From the NCBI GenBank assembly GCA_021323595.1, contig JAJPKR010000028.1:3762-67761 (forward strand): a stretch of DNA of 64,000 nt, given 5' to 3'. Below the pieces are notes generated by a model. The model saw only the letters and a list, made by a program, of their open reading frames with translations, was not told where the DNA came from and searched no databases. This DNA comes from Terriglobia bacterium (lineage in GTDB: Bacteria; Acidobacteriota; Terriglobia; Terriglobales; SCQP01). Made by a program: the position numbers and the translations under genes. Numbering within the stretch: the first letter of the stretch is position 1; every line of letters begins with the position of its first letter. Positions 19,930 through 62,346 of the stretch are shown here, in pieces.

Positions 19930-20433
19930 ATGCGCGTCCTCGGGATTGATTGCGGCAGCATGGCCACCGGGTACGGCCTCGTCGAGAGTGACGGACGCCG
20001 CCATCAGGCGCTCGACTTCGGTGTCGTGCGCGCCGGAGCGCGCGAGGCTTTCGCGCCGCGCCTGCACCGCATTCATTGCCGCCTGACGGAGCTGATCCTG
20101 GCGCATCAGCCCGATTGCGTGGCGATCGAAAACGTTTTTTATGCCGAAAATGTGCGCTCGGCGCTCAAGCTCGGGCACGTGCGCGGCGTCGCCATGCAAG
20201 CGGCGGCGGCACAGGGGCTGACCATCGCCGAGTATTCGCCGCTCGAGGTCAAGAGCGCCTTGACCGGTTATGGGCGCGCGGAGAAGCACCAGGTTCAGCG
20301 GATGGTGCAAGAGCTGCTGCGGCTGGCCGTTGCGCCGGTCTCGCTCGACGCCAGCGATGCCCTCGCCGTGGCCATCTGCCACATCCATTACTCCCAGGGC
20401 CAAGCGCTTGCCGCGCCGGGCCTGGGCCGATGA
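19930..20433 (+). CDS. ruvC: Crossover junction endodeoxyribonuclease RuvC
   Basis: Internal ATG of ORF 19720..20433. MRVLGIDCGSMATGYG, IENVFY, LKLGHVRGV, PLEVKSALTGYGRAEKHQV, SDALAVAICH, i.e. the RuvC catalytic acidic residues in the canonical order. Confidence 0.93.
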   Translation: MRVLGIDCGSMATGYGLVESDGRRHQALDFGVVRAGAREAFAPRLHRIHCRLTELILAHQPDCVAIENVFYAENVRSALKLGHVRGVAMQAAAAQGLTIAEYSPLEVKSALTGYGRAEKHQVQRMVQELLRLAVAPVSLDASDALAVAICHIHYSQGQALAAPGLGR

Positions 20434-20524: not shown

Positions 20525-22333
20525 TTAGACCTCCTCGAAAATGCCCTTTTCGAAGCCCAGGTCGCGCGCCGAGGGCGTCAGCAGGGTCTTCGGCCCGATG
20601 CGGATCCGGCGGCGCTCGCGCAGCGCCTCGCGCACATCGCTCTCGCAGACGAACTCGGCCGGCGGCGCTGGCGGCGCCGCTGCGGGCCGCGCCGGCGGAG
20701 AGGGCGGCGACTGCGGTTCCGCCGTCGGCGCAGGCGGCGGCGTTGCCGCCGGCATGGCCGCCGGCGCCAGGGCCGGCGCCGGTATACCGGCGGCGCCGCC
20801 GGCAAGCTTTTCCGCCAAGAAGCGCTCGATCACTTGGCGAATCGCCGCCCGGTCCAAACCGCCGGCGGCCGGCGGCGTGAAAGCCGGCTCGCGGGCCGCG
20901 ACGGCCGGCGGCGGGGCCGGCGCGTGCTGGCAGGCGCAGGCCGCCCCGGCGCCGTCCGGCGATGCCACGGCAGCGGCGGCGGCCGGCGGCCGGGTTTCGC
21001 GCGCGATGCGTTTGATGTTGATCAGGTGTTGCGGGCCGATGTTGTCGGAGGTGATGTTGCCGCCGGCGGCGCCGCAGCCCAGCGTCATCGCCGGAAACAA
21101 GTTCGTCGTCGCTCCGATCGAGCCCTGCGGTGCCGGGCTGTTCACGACCACGCGAAACGCCGGCATGCGCAGGCCATATTCGCGGATTACATCCCGATCC
21201 TGGGCATGAATGACGCAGGTATGGCCGAGCCCGCCGAAGTGCAGCAGATTCGAGCACAACTCGAAGGCCGCCGCGCGGTCGGCGGTGAAATAGAGGGCCA
21301 GCACCGGCGAGAGCTTTTCCGCCGACAGCGGCACTTGCTTGCCCATGCCCTTCAGCTCGGCCACCAGCACCCGCGCCTCCGCCGGCACTGCGAAGCCGGC
21401 CAGCTCGCCCAACCGCTGCGGCGACTGGCCGACGCATTTGGGATTGACGGTGAACGATTCGCGGAGGATGAGCGTATTGCCGAGCTTCTCGGTCTCCTCC
21501 GCATTGAGGAAATAGGCGCCGTTCTTGCGCAGCTCTTCGGTGACCGGCGCGCGCAGCGCCTCCTCGGCCACCAGCGCCTGCTCGGAAGAGCAGATCGTAC
21601 CCCAGTCGAAGGTCTTGCCGGCGACGACGTCGGCGACGGCCTTGGCAAGCTGGGCGGAACGATCCACGAACGCGGGCACGTTCCCCGGGCCCACGCCGAA
21701 GGCGGGCTTGCCCGAGCTATACGCCGCCCGCACGATGCTCATGCCGCCGGTGGCCAAGATGACGCCGGTGCGGCGGTGCCGCATCAATTCCTGTGTGCCG
21801 GCCATGGAAGGCAGCGCGAAGCAGCCGATCAGGCCCTCGGGCGCGCCCGCGCTTTTCGCCGCCTGCCACATCAACCCTACGGTTTCGCAGATGCAGCGCA
21901 TCGCCGCCGGATGGGGGCTGACGACGATCGCGTTGCCGGCCTTGAGCGCGATCAAGATCTTGTAAATCGCCGTGCTCGTGGGATTCGTGCAAGGCAGCAC
22001 CGCCGCGACCACGCCCACCGGCTCGGCGATCTCCGTGATGCCGGCGGCAGGGTCGTCGCGGATCACGCCGATCGTGGGCAGCGCGCGAATCGCCTCATAG
22101 ACGCGCTGCGAGGCGAAGAGATTCTTTTGGATCTTGTCGGCGACCTTGCCGTAGGTCGTCTCCTCCACCGCCAGCCGCGCCAGCCGCTCGGCGTTGGCGG
22201 TGGCGGCGGCGGCCATGGCGCCGACGATGCCATCCACCTGCGCCTGCGCAAAGCCGCGATAGGTGAGAAAGGCGGCGTGGGCGCGCTCGATCAAGTCGCG
22301 CGCCTCTTGTACGGATTGGAGATCCTTGTCCAT
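20525..22333 (-). CDS. CoA-acylating aldehyde dehydrogenase (EutE/PduP-type, BMC-associated) with a 155-aa C-terminal extension
   Basis: N-terminal 447 aa match EutE/PduP-type AldDH (EPVGVVAAVLPCTNPTST, FDWGTICSSEQ with the catalytic Cys, GLGHTCVIH, TLGCGAAGGNITSDN). This is followed by Pro/Ala linkers and two short structured segments. It lies 52 nt downstream of a BMC-H gene. Confidence 0.88.
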   Translation of the reverse strand: MDKDLQSVQEARDLIERAHAAFLTYRGFAQAQVDGIVGAMAAAATANAERLARLAVEETTYGKVADKIQKNLFASQRVYEAIRALPTIGVIRDDPAAGITEIAEPVGVVAAVLPCTNPTSTAIYKILIALKAGNAIVVSPHPAAMRCICETVGLMWQAAKSAGAPEGLIGCFALPSMAGTQELMRHRRTGVILATGGMSIVRAAYSSGKPAFGVGPGNVPAFVDRSAQLAKAVADVVAGKTFDWGTICSSEQALVAEEALRAPVTEELRKNGAYFLNAEETEKLGNTLILRESFTVNPKCVGQSPQRLGELAGFAVPAEARVLVAELKGMGKQVPLSAEKLSPVLALYFTADRAAAFELCSNLLHFGGLGHTCVIHAQDRDVIREYGLRMPAFRVVVNSPAPQGSIGATTNLFPAMTLGCGAAGGNITSDNIGPQHLINIKRIARETRPPAAAAAVASPDGAGAACACQHAPAPPPAVAAREPAFTPPAAGGLDRAAIRQVIERFLAEKLAGGAAGIPAPALAPAAMPAATPPPAPTAEPQSPPSPPARPAAAPPAPPAEFVCESDVREALRERRRIRIGPKTLLTPSARDLGFEKGIFEEV

Positions 22334-22385
22334 GGCCGGCCCGCGCGCGGCGAAGGGCGGCGCGCGCGGCTGCCGCGCGCGCGCG

Positions 22386-22670
22386 CTACTTGGGGGCCTG
22401 GCCCTTGTTGGGGAGGATCTTTTCGACTTCCGCGTGCGGCCGCGGGATGACGTGCACGCTCACCAACTCGCCTACCCGCCGCGCCGCCGCCGCGCCGGCG
22501 TCGGTGGCGGCCTTCACCGCGCCGACGTCGCCGCGCACCATCACCGTCACGTAGCCGGCGCCGATGTATTCGCGGCCGATCAGCACCACGTTTGCCGCCT
22601 TGACCATGGCGTCGGCTGCCTCGATCGAGCCGACCAGCCCCTTGGTTTCGATCAGTCCCAACGCTTCCAT
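22386..22670 (-). CDS. Bacterial microcompartment hexameric shell protein (BMC-H, Pfam00936 type; PduA/EutM/CcmK-like)
   Basis: [59 protein letters not shown]...VHVIPRPH is a canonical single-domain BMC-H sequence. GGGAGAGG RBS upstream. Confidence 0.93.
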
Positions 22671-22905
22671 TGCCTCTCCCTTCGCCGCAACAACCGCTAA
22701 GGCGCTAAACGTAGCAGAATCCAGACGCTTGCGCCAGTGTGGATTCGCGCGCCCTCGCGCCGCAGCCGGCCCCTGCGGCTTGGCCTTCCTCGCCCGGGCG
22801 CCCGTCGCAGGCCCCGATTTTCGTCATCGCCCGAAGTGCGGCCGCATCGGCTCCTGCCGCGTGGTTCCCGCCTTTGGTTCGGCAAGCCGTAAGCTATCCT
22901 GAGAT

Positions 22906-23565
22906 TTGGGACACTTAACCCGTCTTTTTCTGCATTTCGAGCTATTTTTCCTCGGGCTGGGCCCGCTCGGCTTGTTCCTCATGAGCATCGAGGATTCGGC
23001 CGGAATCGCGCTGGTGCCGGAAATCCTCATGGTGGATCTCACCCTCCACCATCCCCACCGCATGTTCGAGTACATCCTGATCACGGTGGCGGGGACGGTG
23101 ATCGGCAGCCTCATCCTATTTTTTATCGCCCGGGAGCTGGGCCTGCACTGGGTGGAGAAGCACATGTCGCCGGAGCGGTTTCACCGCATCCATCGCTGGT
23201 TCGAACGCAACGAGCTTGTGGCGGTGGCGGTGCCGGCGGTGGCGCCGCCGCCGGTGCCTTTCAAACTGTTCGTGCTCGTCGCCGGCTTATTCGAGATGTC
23301 CTGGCTGCACTTCATCGGCGCGATGGCCGCGGCTCGCTTCGTGCGCTATTACCTCGAGGCCTGGCTGGCGTTGCGCTACGGACCGCAAGCCGAGCAGTTT
23401 TTCCAGCACCATCCGGAGGTGCTGGTCGCGGTGGTGGCCGCGCTCTTTATCGCTGCGTTCTTAATCGGCCGCTGGCGGGAAAGGCGCAATCACGCGCGCC
23501 GTCCTAACGCCTCCCATCCCGATTCGCAGCCCCCCTCGCCCGCCCCCGTCGGCCATCGGCAGTGA
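22906..23565 (+). CDS. DedA / SNARE-associated (VTT domain) family membrane protein (YqaA-like)
   Basis: Polytopic protein. FLMSIEDSAGIALVPE ... VAVPAVAPPPVPFKLFVLVAGL resembles the VTT re-entrant-loop motifs. Confidence 0.6.
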   Translation: MGHLTRLFLHFELFFLGLGPLGLFLMSIEDSAGIALVPEILMVDLTLHHPHRMFEYILITVAGTVIGSLILFFIARELGLHWVEKHMSPERFHRIHRWFERNELVAVAVPAVAPPPVPFKLFVLVAGLFEMSWLHFIGAMAAARFVRYYLEAWLALRYGPQAEQFFQHHPEVLVAVVAALFIAAFLIGRWRERRNHARRPNASHPDSQPPSPAPVGHRQ

Positions 23566-24758: not shown

Positions 24759-24836
24759 GTCCCCGTCGTCTAGCCCGGCCTAGGACATCGCCCTTTCACG
24801 GCGGTAACGCGGGTTCGAATCCCGCCGGGGACGCCA
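24759..24836 (+). tRNA. tRNA-Glu (anticodon UUC), CCA encoded
   Basis: GTCCCCG TC GTC-TAGCCCGGCCTA-GGAC A TCGCC CTTTCAC GGCGG TAAC GCGGG TTCGAAT CCCGC CGGGGAC G CCA folds as a cloverleaf and is near-colinear with E. coli tRNA-Glu. Confidence 0.95.
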
Positions 24837-34482: not shown

Positions 34483-37400
34483 TTAGAAGCTCAACTGCGC
34501 TCCCAACTGCACCAAACGTTCGCCGTAGGTGGAAAAGATCTGGCCGAAGCTGCCGGCGCAAACGCCGTTCCGGATGGAGCACGTCGTACCGGGATTGTTC
34601 CAGTGCGGCGTGTTGGTCAGGTTCTGCGCCTCCGCTCTGGCCTCCAAATCGTATTTCTCACCCACCCGGAAATGGCGGAACAGGCTGAAATCGAGCTGCG
34701 CCAATCCCGGCCCGCGCAGCCAGGATAAGCCGCGCCCCGAGGTGCCGAACTGCGCCGTCGTGACCGGCGTGAACGCGTTGGTATTGAACCAGAATTGGCC
34801 CGGCCCCCGGCCGTGCGAGACTTGCAGCGGCCCGGTGAAATTGGGATCGGCCGCGGTCCAGGGAGTGTTGAGGTAGAGCGACGTTTGGCCGATGGTGAGC
34901 GGCGCGCCGTTCATCCAGGTGAAGATGCCGTTCACTTGCCAGCCGCCCAGCACCTTGCTCGCGGCGCCGGTGTTGGCCCACCTCTTGCCGCCGCCGAACG
35001 GCAGTTCGTAGACATACGCCATCTCCAGCATGTGGGTGTGATCGAAGCTCGGAGCGCCGCGATTCAGTCCCATACAGCCTTGCGGCATCGACGGCGACGA
35101 CGGGCAGTTGAACCGCAGGCCGTTTTCCCAGCCTTCGTCGTCCACGTAGCTGATGGCGTGGGAATAGGTGTACGCGCCCTGCAAGAAGAGGCCGGTCGTG
35201 ACGTGGCGATTGAGCGAAACCTGCAGGGAGTTGTAGTGCGAATCCAGATAGCCTTGGAACGCGTAGGTGTCGGCCGTGCGCCCGAAGGCGGCGTAGAGCG
35301 GCTGGCCGTTGGCGCCGCTGTTGAAGGGCGCCGCGTTCAGTTCCTGGCCATTGAACTCGTGCACGAAGTGATTGCCGACGTAGGCGACGTTGAGAAGAAT
35401 CTGGCTCGGCAGCTTCTTCTCCACCGCGAAGTTCCAAGACTCCACGTAGCCGCGATGGAACTCGCCGGGCGCCAGCGTGCCGATGGTCACGTCCGGAGGC
35501 GGCGTGATCGCGCCGGTGGAGATGCCGGCCGGCGGTTGAATGAGCGGCACGCCCTCGGCCAGCCCGGGAATGGCGTTGGCGGCGTTGGCGGTGGCGTTGA
35601 AATTGGCGTATGGCAAGAAGCGCGTGATCGCGCTGTTGCCGGAGACGAAATCGTCGGCGCCGATGGTCAGCGGATAGAAGCCGCGCAGCGGGCGCTCGAG
35701 CGGCAGCGTGTCGTAGCTGACGCCGAAGCCGGTGCGCACCACCGTGCTGTCGTTGAACTGATAGGCGAAGCCGACGCGCGGCGAAAACAGCTTCTTGCTG
35801 CTGGTCACCCCCAGGTGCGTGGGGTTGCCGCCGATGCCGCCCAGCTTGAGGATGTTGGTTGCCGGATCGTAGAGCTCGAATTTATCGATGCCGTCGCGCG
35901 TGATCAGCGGGAAATATTCCCAGCGCACGCCGAGATTCGCGGTCAACCGCGGCGTGAGGGTCCAGCGGTCGCCGACGTAGAGCGCCGTCTGCCAATCCTT
36001 GTTCGTGGCCTTGATGTATTGCTGGCCGTTCTGAACCTCGTTCGACAAACCAAGATCGAACTCGGCCACGCCGTTCCAGGGGTTGGAATCGAAGCCCACC
36101 GGCGTCAGCGTGCCGCCGCTGCTGGTGTACACCGTCTGGGTGGCGCTGGCCGGATCGAGGGGGTTCGACGGCAGGTTCAAGAAAGTATTGTCGTCGGCGG
36201 TGCTGACGAAGCCGCGCGGGCAGCAGACGATTTCCGGCTGCCAGTGGTTCATGTGATTGTGAGCGGCGTCAAACCCGAAGGAGATCTCGTGCGCGCCGCG
36301 CACCCAGCTCACGTTTTCATCCAGAGTCACCGACCAGTCATTGCGCTGCACCGGCTCCCAGGAGGCGGCCGTTCCCAGCGTGGTGAAATCGCTGATTTGA
36401 ATGCCCGGCATGCCGCTGTAGCGCTTGTCGTTGGTGGGGGTGTTGCTGTTCACCAAGCCCAGCACCGATTGCCCGAGATCTTGCCCATAGTCGGGCAGAT
36501 GGTTCTCCTCGCTCATGCGCGTGAAGCCGATATGCCCGGTCAGAACCATGTTGGGTGACGCGGTGTAGTTATCACCCAGCGTGACCATCTGCGCCACGTC
36601 GTTGGTGAGGCCGGTCCCGCCGCCCTGGCCGGCGATCCCGTAATCGGAGCCGTCGTTGAGCCGGGCGCGCTGCATGGTGTACTTGAGCCAAACCTGCTGC
36701 CGGTCGCTGGGATAGTAATCCGTCCGCAGGGTGTAGATGTTGCGGTTCCAAGCCTGATGGCGGAGCTGAATGTCGTTGAAGGGCGTATCGATCGTGAACG
36801 GCACGTTCTGGTTGGGCGCCGACAGCAGCTTCCAGTAGTTGAGCGCGCCGGCGTACATGCGGTTGGCCGGGATCACGTTCAGCTTGCCGCCGGAGGAGAA
36901 CACGCAGCGGCCGGTGCCGGACGTGGGATCGCCGGTCGTGGGGTCGAAGACCATGCCTTCTTGCAACTGCACGGTCGCCCCCTCGGTGGTGCAGACGTTG
37001 ATGGGAGCGCCCGCCGAATTGTAGAGCGGCGCGCCGAGATAGGCGGAAAAGTCCCCCGTGCGCATGTCCGTCGGCGGGATCAGGTTCTCGTCGATGGGCT
37101 GCTGCCGCTGGAAGTAGCCGTCCCAGTTGCCGAAGTAGAACAGCTTGTGCTGGACGATGGGGCCGCCGACGGTGAACCCGTCGTTGTTGCGAATGTTCTG
37201 CGGCCGCGGCCCGGCGGGGGCGAACAGGTTCTTCGCGTCGAGCGCTTGGTCGGTATGGTAGCCGTACAGCGAGACGTGGAACTGATCGGAGCCGGATTTG
37301 GTGACGACATCGGTCGCCGCCCCCGCGGTCAGGCCCTTCTGCACGTTGTAGGTCGCGGTCTGCACGTTGACCTCTTCCACGCTCGCCGCCGGGGGCACGA

Positions 37401-38094
37401 TCACCATGTGATCCGGCAGCCAGAGGAAGATGTCGGTCGCGCCATCCACCCGCGTGGTATTGGCATGCGTCGGCAGGCCGTTGGTGTTGATGTCGAAGGA
37501 GCGGTCGGGCGTGTCGGCGATGGAGTTGGGGTAGCTATTGCGAATGCCCGAGGTCGAGTACACGCCCGGGGTCAACAGCTCCAGCGTTTGGAAGTTGTGG
37601 TAAACGTTCAGCGGCAGATTTTGCACCGCGTAGGTGCTGATCGTGGTGTGGACGTCGGTCTGTTGCGTTTGCAGCACCGCCGCCGAGCCCTGCACCGTGA
37701 CCTCTTGGCGCACCCCGCCCACCTGCAACTGGAAGTCTTGTTCATTGACCTGGCCGATGACGATCAAGACCCCCGTCTTCTTCACCGCCTGGAAACCCTG
37801 GACGGTCACGGTAACCGTGTAGGTTCCTGCCGGCAGGTCCGGGAAGCGATATTGCCCGCTGGGATTGGTCTTGGTCTGCCGCTGGATGCCGGTCGCGACG
37901 TTGCTGACCGTGATCTGTGCATTGGGCAAGGCGGCGCCGCTCTTATCCGTAACCGTGCCGGCGACCGAGCCGTACAACACTTGTGCGCTCGCTGGCGGCG
38001 AAACGAAAGCAAACGCTAATGCCATCGCCAGACACAGCGAAGACCACGTCACCCGAGATCGCGCGTTCATACACGACCCTCCTGGGTTCGGCAA
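34483..38094 (-). CDS. TonB-dependent outer-membrane receptor with N-terminal carboxypeptidase-regulatory-like domain
   Basis: Signal peptide (the likely true start is MNARSRV at about 38070). CarboxypepD_reg module GSVAGTVTDKSGAALPNAQITVSNVATGIQRQTKTNPSGQYRFPDLPAGTYTVTV, a long beta-barrel and a terminal aromatic residue (...GAQLSF). Confidence 0.9.
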   Translation of the reverse strand: MPNPGGSCMNARSRVTWSSLCLAMALAFAFVSPPASAQVLYGSVAGTVTDKSGAALPNAQITVSNVATGIQRQTKTNPSGQYRFPDLPAGTYTVTVTVQGFQAVKKTGVLIVIGQVNEQDFQLQVGGVRQEVTVQGSAAVLQTQQTDVHTTISTYAVQNLPLNVYHNFQTLELLTPGVYSTSGIRNSYPNSIADTPDRSFDINTNGLPTHANTTRVDGATDIFLWLPDHMVIVPPAASVEEVNVQTATYNVQKGLTAGAATDVVTKSGSDQFHVSLYGYHTDQALDAKNLFAPAGPRPQNIRNNDGFTVGGPIVQHKLFYFGNWDGYFQRQQPIDENLIPPTDMRTGDFSAYLGAPLYNSAGAPINVCTTEGATVQLQEGMVFDPTTGDPTSGTGRCVFSSGGKLNVIPANRMYAGALNYWKLLSAPNQNVPFTIDTPFNDIQLRHQAWNRNIYTLRTDYYPSDRQQVWLKYTMQRARLNDGSDYGIAGQGGGTGLTNDVAQMVTLGDNYTASPNMVLTGHIGFTRMSEENHLPDYGQDLGQSVLGLVNSNTPTNDKRYSGMPGIQISDFTTLGTAASWEPVQRNDWSVTLDENVSWVRGAHEISFGFDAAHNHMNHWQPEIVCCPRGFVSTADDNTFLNLPSNPLDPASATQTVYTSSGGTLTPVGFDSNPWNGVAEFDLGLSNEVQNGQQYIKATNKDWQTALYVGDRWTLTPRLTANLGVRWEYFPLITRDGIDKFELYDPATNILKLGGIGGNPTHLGVTSSKKLFSPRVGFAYQFNDSTVVRTGFGVSYDTLPLERPLRGFYPLTIGADDFVSGNSAITRFLPYANFNATANAANAIPGLAEGVPLIQPPAGISTGAITPPPDVTIGTLAPGEFHRGYVESWNFAVEKKLPSQILLNVAYVGNHFVHEFNGQELNAAPFNSGANGQPLYAAFGRTADTYAFQGYLDSHYNSLQVSLNRHVTTGLFLQGAYTYSHAISYVDDEGWENGLRFNCPSSPSMPQGCMGLNRGAPSFDHTHMLEMAYVYELPFGGGKRWANTGAASKVLGGWQVNGIFTWMNGAPLTIGQTSLYLNTPWTAADPNFTGPLQVSHGRGPGQFWFNTNAFTPVTTAQFGTSGRGLSWLRGPGLAQLDFSLFRHFRVGEKYDLEARAEAQNLTNTPHWNNPGTTCSIRNGVCAGSFGQIFSTYGERLVQLGAQLSF

Positions 38095-38164
38095 GTTAGT
38101 GCAAAATGTCTCATTCTGTCAAGTGCTTTCGAAAAGTTTTTCTTTTTGACGAACGGGGTAGGCC

Positions 38165-38992
38165 GTGAGCGGAGCCGCCGATCCCGGCGCCGCCGAGGGC
38201 GCTATGCTAGCGGGCGTGTCCGGCGAGAGCAATTTGCTCAATGAAGAGCGCCGCCGCGCCATCTTGGCGATGGTGCGCCGCGACGGAAGGGTGCTGGTCA
38301 ATACGGTCGCCGAGCGGTTCGGCGTCTCCCCGGTGACTGCGCGCAATGACCTGCTGGCGCTGCACAAGCGGGGGCTGGTGCAGCGGGTGCATGGCGGCGC
38401 CATTTCGGTCGGTTTTACCGCCGCCGATCCGGCGCTGAGGCAGAAGGCGGCGCTGCATGGCCGCGAAAAGGCGGCAATCGCGCAAGCCGCCGCCAAGCTG
38501 GTGCAGGCGGGGGAAACCATCGTGCTCGACTCCGGCTCGACGACCATGGAGATCGCCAAGCAGTTGCGCAAGATCACGCCGCTCACGGTGGTGACGAACG
38601 CCGTGAACATCGCTGAAACCCTCGCCGGCAGCGAGGTCGAAGTCGTGCTGACCGGCGGCACCCTGCGCGAGAATTCCTTTTCGCTGGTCGGACCGCTGGC
38701 GGAGGAAACGCTGGCTCAGCTCAACGCCGACCGCCTGTTTCTGGGCGTGGATGGAATCGATACGCTGCGTGGCGTGACCACGCCCAACCTGCTCGAAGCC
38801 AAGGTCAACCGCGTGATGATCTCGATCGCCCGCGAGGTCGTGGTGGTCAGCGATTCCTCGAAGTTCGGCCGCCGCAGCCTCTGCCATATCGCGCCGCTGC
38901 GCGCCCTGCACCGCCTGATCACCGATCGCGGCATCCCGCCCGCCGACCTCAAGCGTCTGCGCGAGGCGGGCGTGGAGGTCACCCTGGTCTAA
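38165..38992 (+). CDS. DeoR/GlpR family transcriptional regulator
   Basis: N-terminal HTH EERRRAILAMVRRDGRVLVNTVAERFGVSPVTARNDLLALHKRGLVQRVHGGA, and a C-terminal DeoR sugar-phosphate sensor domain (IVLDSGSTT, LFLGVDGI). Confidence 0.88.
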   Translation: MSGAADPGAAEGAMLAGVSGESNLLNEERRRAILAMVRRDGRVLVNTVAERFGVSPVTARNDLLALHKRGLVQRVHGGAISVGFTAADPALRQKAALHGREKAAIAQAAAKLVQAGETIVLDSGSTTMEIAKQLRKITPLTVVTNAVNIAETLAGSEVEVVLTGGTLRENSFSLVGPLAEETLAQLNADRLFLGVDGIDTLRGVTTPNLLEAKVNRVMISIAREVVVVSDSSKFGRRSLCHIAPLRALHRLITDRGIPPADLKRLREAGVEVTLV

Positions 38993-39900
38993 GGGCGTCG
39001 CGCGGCGGCCAGATGCGCCAGCCGCTCCCGCAAGCGCTCGCCGGCGGGACCGGCGAAGGCGGCGGTGCCGCCGAGCGCCCCGCAAGCGGCGGCGGCGCAG
39101 CGCGCGGCGAAGGCCAGCGCGGTCGGCAACGGCAAACCGCGCAGCCGCGCGGCGACGAAGCCGGCATCGAAGCTGTCGCCCGCGCCGGTGGTTTCGAGCG
39201 TGCGCGCGCGGAAGGCCGGCACCCGCAGCCGCTGCGTCCCTTGGCGATATTCGGCGCCCCGGCCGCCGCGCTTGACGATGACCGCGCCCGCCGCGTTGCC
39301 GCCCACCCCCGCGGCTTCGCGTTCATTCGGCAAGAAGTAATCCGTGGCCGCCAGCGCGGCGTGAATGCCCGAGCCGTACCGCAGCGACGGATCGGGATTG
39401 GGGTCGAGCGAGGTGCTGAGGCCGAGACGGCGCGCCCGGCGCAGCAGCGCCGGCGCCTGCGGCTGCAAGCGGGTGAGCAGGAAATACGAGGCGATATGCA
39501 GATGGCGCGCGCGCGCGAGCCAGGGCGCCACCTGCGCGGCGCTGGTTTCGGCAAGCGCGCCGGGAAAGGTCAGCAGCGCCTTCTCGCGCCGGCCGCGCGG
39601 TTGCAAGCCCACCGTCAGACCCGTGGGGCGGCGGCTGCGCCGCACCGGCGCAATTTCCACGCCCGCGCCCTGCAGCTGCGCCAGCAGCCAATCGCCCAGC
39701 GCATCCTGGCCCACCACCGCAACCAGCGCGACCCGCAATCCCAGGCGCGCGGCGTTATGGGCGAAGATCCCCGCCGAGCCGCCGATCGTCAGCAGCCCCT
39801 GGCGCGCCAGCCTCTCGCGCCCCAGCGCCGGCCAATCCACGTCGGTCAAGATCAGGTCGGCGTTGAGATCGCCGGCCGCGATGAGGTCGTATGGCGCCAT
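38989..39900 (-). CDS. PfkB-family carbohydrate (sugar/sugar-phosphate) kinase
   Basis: N-terminal GDLNADL/GGSAG motifs and the C-terminal PfkB signature TTGAGDSFDAGF. Confidence 0.88.
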   Translation of the reverse strand: MAPYDLIAAGDLNADLILTDVDWPALGRERLARQGLLTIGGSAGIFAHNAARLGLRVALVAVVGQDALGDWLLAQLQGAGVEIAPVRRSRRPTGLTVGLQPRGRREKALLTFPGALAETSAAQVAPWLARARHLHIASYFLLTRLQPQAPALLRRARRLGLSTSLDPNPDPSLRYGSGIHAALAATDYFLPNEREAAGVGGNAAGAVIVKRGGRGAEYRQGTQRLRVPAFRARTLETTGAGDSFDAGFVAARLRGLPLPTALAFAARCAAAACGALGGTAAFAGPAGERLRERLAHLAAARRP

Positions 39901-39909
39901 TCCAGCGCC

Positions 39910-40938
39910 CTACTCCAGGCTGACGTCGACCACGGCGGAGAGGGCGCGCGGGCGGTCGGCATCCACGGCTTTCGCCCGCGCCCGCGTCAGCGCCAGCCAT
40001 TGGCAGGGCAGAATGTAGAGGGGCAGGCGCCGGTATAGCTCGAGACCGCTCGACAGGGAAAAGTCGCCGCCCGTTTCGTCGATCTGCCAGGTGGCCGCGC
40101 CCAATTCCTTCAATTCGCTCAACAGCGGCCGCTCCCACTCTCGCGAGTTTTCGCTCGACAACAGCACGACGGCGGTCCGCTCCCCCACCACGCTCTTCGG
40201 CCCGTGGCGCTCTTCGAGCGAGTGAAAGGCTTCGGAGGTGGAGAGCGACATCTCTTTCATCTTGAGTGACGCTTCGCGGGCCAGGCCGAAGAGCGGCCCC
40301 TGCCCCAGGAATACGAACTCGGCGGGACCGCTGCGCAGCCAGCTCGCCGCCAGGGCGGCGAACCGCCGCAGCACGTCTTCGCCGGCGGCCACGAGCGGCT
40401 CCATGGACTGGGGTGCGACGCCGGCGAAGACCAGCAGCGCCACCAGCATCGTCGTGAACGAGCGGGTCATGACCACGCTCTCGTCGAAGCCCTCGGGAAA
40501 AACGTAGACTTGCGTCGCGTGCGCGGCCAAATCGCTGGCTTCGCAGCAAGTGAAAACGTGTACCTGGCCCCGCGGCAGCGCCATGCAGCGCTCCGCCGCC
40601 TTGACCACCTCGCTGGTCGCGCCCGAGCGCGACACCATGACAAAGCGGTCGTCCCGGTCAGCCCGCAGATACAGTTCCGGATACAGCAGCAGTTCCGACG
40701 CGGGCACGGCGCGCGATTCCCCGCCCGCCAAAACCCGCCACGCCGCCGCCGCCGCTTCGGCGAGATAGTAGGAAGTGCCGCAGCCCACGAAAAACGTGAC
40801 ACCGGCGGGCGCTTGCCCCGTCGTGCGCCAGAACGGCAGATAGTCGCCGCAGCGCTCCAACGCCGCGCGCCAGACCCGCGGCTGCGAAAGGATCTCCGCT
40901 TCCGTCAGCCGGCCCAAGATGGAGGCGCTTTCGATCAA
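39910..40938 (-). CDS. Tandem-SIS-domain sugar-phosphate isomerase/deaminase (AgaS / FrlB / GlmS C-terminal-like)
   Basis: FVGCGTSYY and VSRSGATSE in SIS domain 1; a second SIS with FLGQGPLFGLAREASLKMKE. It ends 9 nt upstream of the kinase gene. Confidence 0.85.
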   Translation of the reverse strand: MIESASILGRLTEAEILSQPRVWRAALERCGDYLPFWRTTGQAPAGVTFFVGCGTSYYLAEAAAAAWRVLAGGESRAVPASELLLYPELYLRADRDDRFVMVSRSGATSEVVKAAERCMALPRGQVHVFTCCEASDLAAHATQVYVFPEGFDESVVMTRSFTTMLVALLVFAGVAPQSMEPLVAAGEDVLRRFAALAASWLRSGPAEFVFLGQGPLFGLAREASLKMKEMSLSTSEAFHSLEERHGPKSVVGERTAVVLLSSENSREWERPLLSELKELGAATWQIDETGGDFSLSSGLELYRRLPLYILPCQWLALTRARAKAVDADRPRALSAVVDVSLE

Positions 40939-41101
40939 TATAATTTATTTTCGGCAAGCCCAACGCAAATCGTCAACCGAAATCGAACGCAACGATCGAT
41001 TGAAGCAACGCTCGGCGCGCGCCCGGCAATCGTCCCGGCGGCCGGTCTTGCCCCTGCCTGGAAAGCCCGCCGGCGGAAGGACCGCGCCCGCGCCGGCGCG
41101 G

Positions 41102-42796
41102 TCACCGCACGACGCTGCCGGGGCCGCGAATCACCTTGCCGGGACGGGCGGAAGTGAGGCGGCCGTCGAGCAGCACCGGCACGCCGTTGACCAAGACGTC
41201 GTCCATGCCGCTGGAATAGCGCCACGGATCGGCGTAGGTGGCGTGGTCCTGCACGGCCTTGGGATCGAAGATCACCACGTCGGCGGCGAAGCCGGGCCGG
41301 AGCAGGCCGCGATCCTGAATGTGGAGGGTCTCGGCGGCGAGCGAGGTCATTTTGCGAATCGCCTCGGCGAGCGTGAACAGATGTTGGTCGCGCGCCCACA
41401 CCAAGACACGCGTGTTGGCGCCGAAAAAGCGCGGGTGCGGCGCCGCGTAGCCGGTGCGGTCGGCGATATCCATGTCGATCGCGTCCCCGCCGATGCTGAC
41501 GAAAGGCGCGGCGACGATCTGGCGCACGGAAGCGGCGCTCTTGTTGAAAAAGATGCGGCCGAAACTACCGCCCTCGCGCTCGAGCAGGTTCGCGATCGCC
41601 TCGGCGGGCGGCAAGTGATCGAGCGCGCCGGCTTGCTCGAAGGTAAGGCCGACGTAGCGGCGGTCCTCGGCGCGGCGGACGGAGCTGATGAATTCTTCGC
41701 GCCAGCCCTCCGGGTCGTCGGGCGTGCCCAGGGAACGCGCCGAGGCGGCGATGCCGGCGACGATGGCCGGACGCAGCTTCGGATCGCGCAGCCGCCGGGC
41801 GAGCGCGGCGGTGCCGCCGTCGAGAAATTGCTTGGGCACCATCGAAAACGCCGGATTGGCGGCGGCGCGGTAAGGATACGCGTCGGCGGTCACCTCCAGG
41901 CCGTCATCCCGCGCCTGTTGGATCAAGCGCAGCGCCTGGGTGGCGGCGTCGGGCCCGGCGCGGCGCCCGACCTGCAAATGGAAGACATGAAACGGCAACC
42001 CGGCGGCGCGGGCGATGGCGATGCCCTCGGCGATGCCGCCGGCGCGCGGATTGTCGAGCCCGCGCACGTGCGAAGCGTAGATGCCGCCCGCGCCCGCCGC
42101 CACTCGCGCCAAGGCGATGACTTCCGGGTCCTTGGCGAAGATATCCGGCGTGTAGCTGAAGCCGGTGGCCAGGCCGAAAGCGCCGTCGCGCATCGCCCCC
42201 GCCATGAGGCGCTCTTCGCGCGCCAGCTCCGCCGCCGTCGGATCGCGGTCGGCCATGCCGAGCACGGCTTCGCGAATGGCGCCGAAGGTCGCGTAGCTGG
42301 CGACGTTGACGCGGATGCCTTGCCGCTCCAAGCGCGCGAAATACTGGCCCAGGGAACTCCAGTCCAGCGTGATGCCTTGATCTTCGAACAGCCGCCCTTG
42401 TTGCGCCCGCGCCGGCCCGAAGAGTGGTCCCGCCACCGCCACTGCGGTCGTCTCGCCGAGCACTTCGGTGGTCACGCCCTCGTAGATCTTGCTGCAACAG
42501 CCTCCGTTCTTCAGCAGCGCCGCGTCGGAGTGCGAGTGCATGTCGAAGAATCCCGGCGCCGCGACCCGGCCGCGGGCGTCGATCGTGCGGCGCGCCCAGG
42601 CGCCGGCGAGTTTGCCGATGGCGGCGATGCGGCCGTCGCGAATCCCGATGTCGGCGGCGTACCAGGGATTGCCGGTGCCGTCGATCACGTGGGCGTTGCG
42701 GATGAGGATGTCGAATCGCCGGCGGTGCCGCGGCGGCGGGGCGGCGGCCAGCGCCGCCGCCAGCGCGAGGCATAGGACTAGGCGCGCGGAGCCCAT
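41102..42796 (-). CDS. Secreted amidohydrolase, N-acyl-D-amino-acid deacylase (D-aminoacylase) family
   Basis: Signal peptide. FDILIRNAHVIDGTGNPWYAADIGIRDGRIAAIG, PGFFDMHSHSD (H-x-H metal site) and the C-terminal VNGVPVLLDGRLT are typical of the D-aminoacylase subfamily. Confidence 0.85.
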   Translation of the reverse strand: MGSARLVLCLALAAALAAAPPPRHRRRFDILIRNAHVIDGTGNPWYAADIGIRDGRIAAIGKLAGAWARRTIDARGRVAAPGFFDMHSHSDAALLKNGGCCSKIYEGVTTEVLGETTAVAVAGPLFGPARAQQGRLFEDQGITLDWSSLGQYFARLERQGIRVNVASYATFGAIREAVLGMADRDPTAAELAREERLMAGAMRDGAFGLATGFSYTPDIFAKDPEVIALARVAAGAGGIYASHVRGLDNPRAGGIAEGIAIARAAGLPFHVFHLQVGRRAGPDAATQALRLIQQARDDGLEVTADAYPYRAAANPAFSMVPKQFLDGGTAALARRLRDPKLRPAIVAGIAASARSLGTPDDPEGWREEFISSVRRAEDRRYVGLTFEQAGALDHLPPAEAIANLLEREGGSFGRIFFNKSAASVRQIVAAPFVSIGGDAIDMDIADRTGYAAPHPRFFGANTRVLVWARDQHLFTLAEAIRKMTSLAAETLHIQDRGLLRPGFAADVVIFDPKAVQDHATYADPWRYSSGMDDVLVNGVPVLLDGRLTSARPGKVIRGPGSVVR

Positions 42797-42851
42797 CGCC
42801 GCGGATCATACACCACGCGCGGCGCGCGCGCAGCGGCGCGGCGGCGCGCCG

Positions 42852-61916: not shown

Positions 61917-61927
61917 GAACGAGGGTT

Positions 61928-62346
61928 CCAGGCGGGCTGTAAGCCGGATTCTGTGCCCCGTCCGAAGGCGGGGCGGCAATCATTCCTCTCGAACGGCCAT
62001 TACTGGCCGCCTCTAGCGACCTACCCGAGGGTTGTGGCGGACCGGGCCAGCCCGCGCACCCGCCTCGCGGCGAGCGCTCCCCTCCTATTTGGTCTTGCTC
62101 CGCGTGGGGTTTTCCCTGCCTCGCGCCGTCGCCGGCGGAGCGGTGCGCTCTTACCGCACCTTTTCACCCTTACCGCGCCCGTTTCCGAGCGCGGCGGTAT
62201 GTTCTCTGTGGCACTGTCCGTGACGCGGCTATTTGGAGCCGCACCCCTGGCCGTTAGCCAGCACGCCGCCCTGCGGAGTCCGGACTTTCCTCTGCCCCCG
62301 ACCGCGCTCGCGCGCTTCCGGCGACAGCGATTGCCCGCCCGCCTGG
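61928..62346 (-). ncRNA. rnpB: RNase P RNA, bacterial type A
   Basis: Minus strand reads CCAGGCGGGC...GGCAGAGGAAAGTCCGGACTCC...CGGTAAGGGTGAAAAGGTGCGGTAAGAGCGCACC...GAGCAAGACCAAATAGG...GGCACAGAATCCGGCTTACAGCCCGCCTGG. These are the universally conserved RNase P blocks in the E. coli order, and the P1 helix is closed by CCAGGCGGGC / GCCCGCCTGG. Confidence 0.92.

Follow-up and report, generated by a model that had tools for sequence, protein, structure and literature searches.

A BMC-H shell gene and an aldehyde dehydrogenase gene in a Terriglobales genome as a probable satellite module of the acidobacterial ACI microcompartment

Introduction

Bacterial microcompartments (BMCs) of the ACI type were defined by Sutter, Melnicki, Schulz, Woyke and Kerfeld (2021, Nat Commun 12:3809; PMC8217296) and are restricted to Acidobacteria. 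Their main locus encodes an aldolase (PF00596) tagged at its C-terminus with an encapsulation peptide (EP), a hydroxyacid dehydrogenase, a triplet of BMC-P proteins and at least one BMC-H, together with small unknown proteins that include one of about 80 amino acids (aa) with an N-terminal EP and three cysteines. The aldehyde dehydrogenase (AldDH) of the system, phylogenetically nearest to that of the MIC3 type, is kept apart from the main locus and carries its EP near the C-terminus, followed by an unknown domain of about 50 aa; an extra BMC-H is 'occasionally found ... with an AldDh', and a fourth BMC-P variant of the type has also been published (Sutter et al., 2021). Here we analyse a stretch of 64,000 nucleotides (hereafter the window) from a Terriglobia bacterium of the order Terriglobales (GCA_021323595.1, contig JAJPKR010000028.1, positions 3,762 to 67,761), in which a single BMC-H gene adjoins an AldDH gene. 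The pair consists of a shell gene, a dedicated BMC-H paralog, and the gene of a CoA-acylating AldDH; the architecture of the enzyme and the pairing are conserved across Acidobacteriota, and in our assessment it is most probably the AldDH satellite module of an ACI-type BMC.

The enzyme of the window is of the same family as EutE and PduP of the EUT and PDU metabolosomes (PDB 3K9D, 5J78, 5JFL), shares their catalytic cysteine and, like them, would be a microcompartment cargo targeted by a short amphipathic helix on a flexible linker. In PduP of the PDU system the EP lies at the N-terminus, whereas that of the window AldDH is internal to a C-terminal extension of about 155 residues, where it lies between a C-x-C motif and an additional folded module; unlike in EUT and PDU, no phosphotransacylase or alcohol dehydrogenase partner lies near it. 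For the shell gene the closest parallel is with CcmK3 and CcmK4 of beta-carboxysomes, which are likewise shell hexamer paralogs encoded away from a main locus, presumably for separate regulation or tuning of the shell, although the satellite shell gene of the window is tied to the gene of a core enzyme and does not stand alone.

Results

The original prediction placed a 94-aa BMC-H gene 52 nt upstream of a 602-aa EutE-type AldDH gene, and the open reading frames (ORFs) and Pfam matches agree with it (Table 1), the matches of both proteins to their families being far beyond chance. The PF00936 match of the BMC-H spans residues 3-78 and profile positions 1-75 of 75, which makes this a single-domain protein of the class of about 90 aa. 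The interface motifs VKAAN (as VKAANV) and IPRPH (as IPRPHAEV) can be read in its translation, the pore region has the sequence EYIGAGYVT, and the formation of cyclic hexamers and the tiling of facets are predicted properties of the protein. Both proteins occur in identical form in the metagenome-assembled genome (MAG) GCA_035653215.1 ('Terriglobales bacterium', Acidobacteriota) on contig DASRCG010000022.1, which is also present in ENA, JGI (3300027773) and Logan assemblies. Since the two genes share a strand and are separated by a short spacer with no terminator-like site, they are probably co-transcribed; the hairpin predicted for the spacer is not better than that of shuffled sequence (z=-0.55). 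A scan for the promoter of the BMC-H gene found no match to the sigma-70 consensus.

The catalytic core of the AldDH matches PDB 5J78 (E=3e-148 over residues 2-448) and the Listeria EutE structure 3K9D (E=1e-144), and among NCBIfam models TIGR02518 (acetylating acetaldehyde dehydrogenase) scores highest, with 596.7 bits (cut-off 620.1). Its catalytic cysteine, Cys248 in the motif GTICSSEQ, has a counterpart in the same motif of 5J78; like many other core residues, it does not vary among 64 homologs. In the AlphaFold2 (AF2) model the core is mostly confident, with a few short low-confidence loops.

Beyond this core lie about 155 residues arranged as linker, helix, linker and folded module, which we examined in 120 full-length AldDH homologs that are 58-80% identical. 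The full-length AF2 model shows residues 452-493 and 511-550 as disordered, with a predicted local distance difference test (pLDDT) score below 50, and a well-defined module at residues 556-602, with a pLDDT above 90 for the 44-aa stretch 559-602; the linkers consist of 63-75% proline plus alanine. The helix between them has the consensus ..RAVERFLA.R.. across the homologs. Its designation as an EP is based on its position, its conservation and the AF2 prediction; in a hydrophobic-moment scan it did not stand out. A C-x-C motif after residue 430, often as C-x-C-Q-H, is found in 94 of the 120 homologs, and these linker cysteines may relate to the metal-binding hints given for the ACI type by Sutter et al. 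(2021). The ACI aldolases too keep cysteines in the linker preceding their EP (PAPIC...CQ.V.AP or GCP).

The C-terminal module of 44 aa has a beta-alpha-beta-beta-alpha-beta fold, modelled alone with a pLDDT of 96, and in the 120 homologs the terminal block is strongly conserved as FV(C/S/G)E.(D/E)(V/I)R.A....KI.(I/V)G.KT..TP.ARDL; EP and module together are conserved in at least 100 homologs. The module matches no Pfam family and no PDB fold at E<0.001. An E2 peripheral-subunit-binding domain was considered as its identity and rejected, the match to helix 1 (19 residues, E=0.01) being too weak and the fold different. Among 1.84 billion representative proteins searched with a profile of it, the module occurs in 720 clusters, nearly all of them AldDH C-termini, one exception being the macro-domain protein P0294. 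Our guess is that it might be a docking element for the paired BMC-H or for some other core component.

The isolation of the pair within the window, and the lack of PTAC (phosphotransacylase) and ADH (alcohol dehydrogenase) genes there, had also been foreseen in the original prediction, and both observations were upheld. Pfam scans of the called genes over the whole window returned no other BMC component and no phosphotransacylase or Fe-dependent alcohol dehydrogenase family. Every window ORF of at least 30 aa was also scanned in six frames with hidden Markov models and phmmer, the queries being profiles of BMC-P (one of them derived from 218 real sequences) together with BMC-H, class II aldolase and 2-hydroxyacid dehydrogenase; at E<=10 the known BMC-H was the sole match in the 64 kb, with no BMC-P, no second BMC-H and neither of the two enzymes. 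Of the canonical metabolosome core set (signature enzyme, AldDH, phosphotransacylase, alcohol dehydrogenase, BMC-H and BMC-P), the window holds only an AldDH and one BMC-H.

The same two genes recur as an isolated unit at unrelated positions in many Acidobacteriota (loci L007/L008, L009-L011, L012 and L013), including two Terriglobales contigs of 5.4 Mb, ERZ25072076 ctg246095, and 3.69 Mb, ctg246023, and several MAGs. The pairs in the L007-L013 look-ups have no further BMC gene within 10 kb, and BMC-H orthologs 86-98% identical to that of the window adjoin the same AldDH in five look-ups. Elsewhere the pair is often accompanied by type IV pilus genes, a gene for a lytic transglycosylase and a ComM-like gene. 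The closest relative, L238 (GCA_975253525.1, CDHSOT010000202.1), has an AldDH that is 80% identical between the same DedA and ruvC flanks; the genes beyond these shared flanks differ from those of the window. More distant acidobacterial AldDHs (45-50% identity) have the same EP and module, and at four such loci (L045, L047, L059 and L124) a BMC-P gene stands beside the pair. This BMC-P is the published fourth variant.

Comparison of the shell proteins showed two BMC-H subtypes that separate cleanly, the main-locus type being 74-83% identical to the AldDH-paired type. The paired subtype reads EYIGAGYVT and PHAEVE(K/R)ILP, the main-locus BMC-H (L186-L213) EKIGSGYVT and LEDVLPIGK, and an Ala-for-Ser change between the two falls in the region that by homology should line the pore. 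Relatives of the window BMC-H were also tried as a route to a main locus and discarded, all top matches being of the AldDH-paired subtype.

Main loci were sought by scanning contigs from metagenomes for the BMC-P core with a degenerate DNA motif of high GC content, and 114 of the 120 contigs matched carry BMC-P. Some of them show the ACI main-locus order of aldolase, BMC-H, three BMC-P and 2-hydroxyacid dehydrogenase, and others a BMC-H, an ACI-type AldDH and one BMC-P. When the shell-adjacent AldDHs of these contigs were compared with the core of the window enzyme, those of ACI architecture matched at E<=1e-109 and the others at E>=1e-54, with the single exception of L125 (3e-78), a partial ACI-like ORF.

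An alignment of the recovered aldolases was then used to scan species-representative genomes, of which the best 80 of at least 600 matches were listed. Among the matches listed, main loci occur in about 40 genomes of Vicinamibacterales or unclassified Acidobacteriota and, within the class Terriglobia, in Bryobacterales, Ca. Acidiferrales, Ca. Versatilivoradales and unclassified Terriglobia; both Candidatus orders were assigned to this class by taxonomy look-up. The recovered main loci comprise an aldolase with a C-terminal EP, a main-type BMC-H and three BMC-P, in places with a 2-hydroxyacid dehydrogenase or a protein of about 79 aa with an EP and three cysteines; among the same matches no AldDH lies within 10 kb of an acidobacterial main locus. 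Look-ups of the main-type BMC-H showed two compact forms, one in which a small gene lies among those for aldolase, BMC-H and three BMC-P, the other (L226-L229) with BMC-H, three BMC-P and the 79-aa protein with its EP and three cysteines, without an aldolase. The compact loci with an aldolase adjoin a rhomboid gene (L215-L224, L234-L237). In some Acidiferrales genomes (L200, L201, L207 and L212) an EP-tagged aldolase stands alone, with no shell genes within 10 kb. Compared with the published diagram of the Vicinamibacteria-type ACI system, the main loci recovered from the class Terriglobia are more compact and more scattered, and in phmmer searches with SerA as the query no 2-hydroxyacid dehydrogenase was seen near their shell genes. 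The ACI system of Terriglobia is split into small scattered modules, and because of this a lone pair of BMC-H and AldDH is to be expected.

The partner locus of GCA_035653215.1 was sought in the best 80 genome matches, the best 120 clusters of main-type BMC-H, four look-ups and the accessions of cluster members. None of these routes led to this MAG; the 120 clusters did not include it or its source samples, and the four look-ups fell in other samples. In viral contigs, which were scanned with a DNA motif, the BMC-H and an alignment of typed BMC-P, the one finding was a Salmonella-type pdu locus beside a prophage. In this contig (L014, IMGVR_UViG_2744054454_000014) the start of an enterobacterial pdu locus (pduF, pduA, pduB, pduC) lies beside phage tail-fibre-like genes, an arrangement that probably marks the edge of a prophage rather than a phage with a shell protein of its own.

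The convergent ruvC and divergent DedA-type flanks named in the original prediction are borne out by their Pfam matches. The ruvC gene is the boundary of the locus and lies outside the system. The gene for the VTT/DedA-family membrane protein is kept in the closest relative only and is not found at the other pair loci looked up, and there is no evidence for its membership in the system. Among the remaining features of the window (Table 1), the sugar-catabolism-like cluster, which is adjoined by a gene for a large outer-membrane barrel protein, has no evident link with the microcompartment pair. The 982-aa open frame, which lies where the GC content of the window is highest, is overlapped by several Arg-rich antisense frames and may not be a real gene.

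Table 1. Positions of the BMC-H/AldDH pair, its parts and flanks, and further features of the 64-kb window.
Feature	Position	Strand	Remarks
BMC-H shell hexamer gene, AldDH-paired subtype, 94 aa	22386-22670	minus	PF00936 E=5.4e-29; HZT73017.1
EutE-type CoA-acylating AldDH, 602 aa	20525-22333	minus	PF00171 E=3.7e-22; HZT73016.1
AldDH catalytic core, residues 1-446	20996-22333	minus	CoA-acylating, EutE-type
C466-A-C468-Q-H470 motif, residues 466-470	20924-20938	minus	in disordered linker after core
Encapsulation-peptide-like helix, residues 495-510	20804-20851	minus	RAAIRQVIERFLAEKL; AF2 helix between disordered linkers
C-terminal module, 44 aa, residues 559-602	20528-20659	minus	FVCESDVREAL..IRIGPKTLLTPSARDLG..IFEEV
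BMC-H/AldDH spacer, 52 nt	22334-22385	minus	GC-rich; between same-strand genes
Shine-Dalgarno-like site	22673-22680	minus	GGGAGAGG; 2 nt upstream of BMC-H ATG; read from sequence
Divergent intergenic region, 235 nt	22671-22905		presumed promoter location
ruvC, convergent flank	19930-20433	plus	PF02075 E=5.6e-48
VTT/DedA-family membrane protein gene, divergent flank	22906-23565	plus	PF09335 E=8.5e-15
tRNA-Glu(TTC)	24759-24836	plus	
Outer-membrane barrel protein gene	34483-38118		large; TonB-dependent type
Sugar-catabolism-like cluster	38162-42805		DeoR regulator, PfkB kinase, SIS-domain protein, amidohydrolase
Two adjacent paralogs, about 1,300-1,430 aa	46899-54661	minus	DUF3857, DUF3858, transglutaminase-like domains, TPR repeats
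Open frame, 982 aa	54756-57704	minus	GC 0.72-0.74; no Pfam match
Class A bacterial RNase P RNA	61924-62346	minus	252 bits; overlaps upstream end of EPSP-synthase-containing open frame

Discussion

The pair of the window resembles the published ACI AldDH satellite in an acidobacterial host, an AldDH encoded away from vertex genes, an EP near the C-terminus of the enzyme followed by a domain of about 50 aa, and an adjoining BMC-H with the standard KAAN and PRPH motifs. The assignment to the ACI type is made because the literature description is matched point by point, because the EP and the C-terminal module are backed by conservation and by AF2, and because the host is an acidobacterium. The locus is accordingly best regarded as an ordinary further example of a catalogued type and not as a new minimal organelle. 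The original prediction had offered two alternatives, a satellite of a main acidobacterial locus elsewhere or a minimal assembly of shell protein and AldDH; the first stands at the level of the family, where it agrees with the ACI description feature for feature, and the second, as an assembly of a new kind, finds no support. Any novelty of the pair is likewise lost at the level of locus type, as the ACI AldDH satellite has already been catalogued (Sutter et al., 2021). That the pair serves a main locus in this very genome we infer.

Several observations weigh against the ACI assignment. The type was placed 'primarily' in subdivisions 4 and 6 (Sutter et al., 2021), whereas the host here belongs to the order Terriglobales, and among the matches listed there is no main locus, BMC-P or aldolase for GCA_035653215.1 or for any record labelled as of this order. 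The enzyme also scores just below the equivalog cut-off of TIGR02518. Finally, the searchable literature holds no experimental characterization of any ACI compartment, which is why we infer the substrate and what each part does.

The gap in the order Terriglobales could alternatively reflect a stand-alone minimal system, in which the BMC-H and the EP-tagged AldDH, with neither pentamers nor a main locus, form an open sheet, tube or scaffold on which the AldDH is concentrated. Such a system would account for the lack of BMC-P, aldolase and second BMC-H both in the 64 kb and within 10 kb of the Terriglobales-like pairs examined, and for a paired BMC-H that is a distinct and conserved subtype; that no main locus appeared in the listed records of the order also speaks for it. 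However, this absence comes from limited sampling and not from whole-genome scans, and the same AldDH architecture and BMC-H subtype are found in lineages with BMC-P, which sometimes directly adjoins the pair. Compact main loci exist in sister orders of the same class, the typical scattering of the ACI system in small modules would itself leave lone pairs, and there is no obvious reason to keep an EP without a co-localized aldehyde-producing enzyme. We therefore regard a stand-alone system as unlikely. There is also an outside chance that the Terriglobales pair is self-sufficient in a particular manner, the 44-aa module and the C-x-C motif docking the AldDH on its own BMC-H to give a vertex-less scaffold or an enzyme-bearing tile; if true, this would be a mode of cargo-to-shell attachment distinct from the classical encapsulation peptide.

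That the pair is instead the satellite of another microcompartment type, such as PVM-like, HO or MIC3, is suggested by the proximity of the ACI AldDH to that of MIC3 (Sutter et al., 2021) and by an older survey in which acidobacterial loci were classed as PVM-like. We consider this very improbable, as an EP followed by a C-terminal module of about 50 aa is the signature of the ACI type, the module occurs almost only on this AldDH family among the 1.84 billion representatives, the AldDHs at other shell-locus types in the contigs sampled are much further removed (E>=1e-54 in every case but one) and the host is an acidobacterium. Least probable of all is that the pair, for all its isolation from other BMC genes, is the decaying and no longer functioning remnant of a lost microcompartment, given that both ORFs are intact, 64 homologs agree in the catalytic cysteine and many core residues, an ortholog 80% identical holds the same position in the closest relative, and the module and EP are conserved alongside BMC-H orthologs that are 86-98% identical.

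For the ACI satellite a mechanism can be proposed on the basis of the published model of the type and of what is generally known of metabolosomes. The helix, as an encapsulation peptide, would draw the enzyme into a shell whose main constituents are the second BMC-H type and the BMC-P triplet encoded elsewhere. In the lumen, the EP-tagged class II aldolase would split a sugar phosphate into dihydroxyacetone phosphate and an aldehyde, which the AldDH would turn into an acyl-CoA with NAD+ and CoA. The paired BMC-H, co-expressed with the AldDH, would be built into the shell as a minor facet tile.

The ACI-type system reaches well into the Terriglobia, one of the dominant classes of soil bacteria, and its AldDH always travels with its own BMC-H subtype, a conserved 44-aa module and a cysteine motif. 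For this soil-abundant compartment the module, the cysteine motif and the paired BMC-H provide handles for a first biochemical study.

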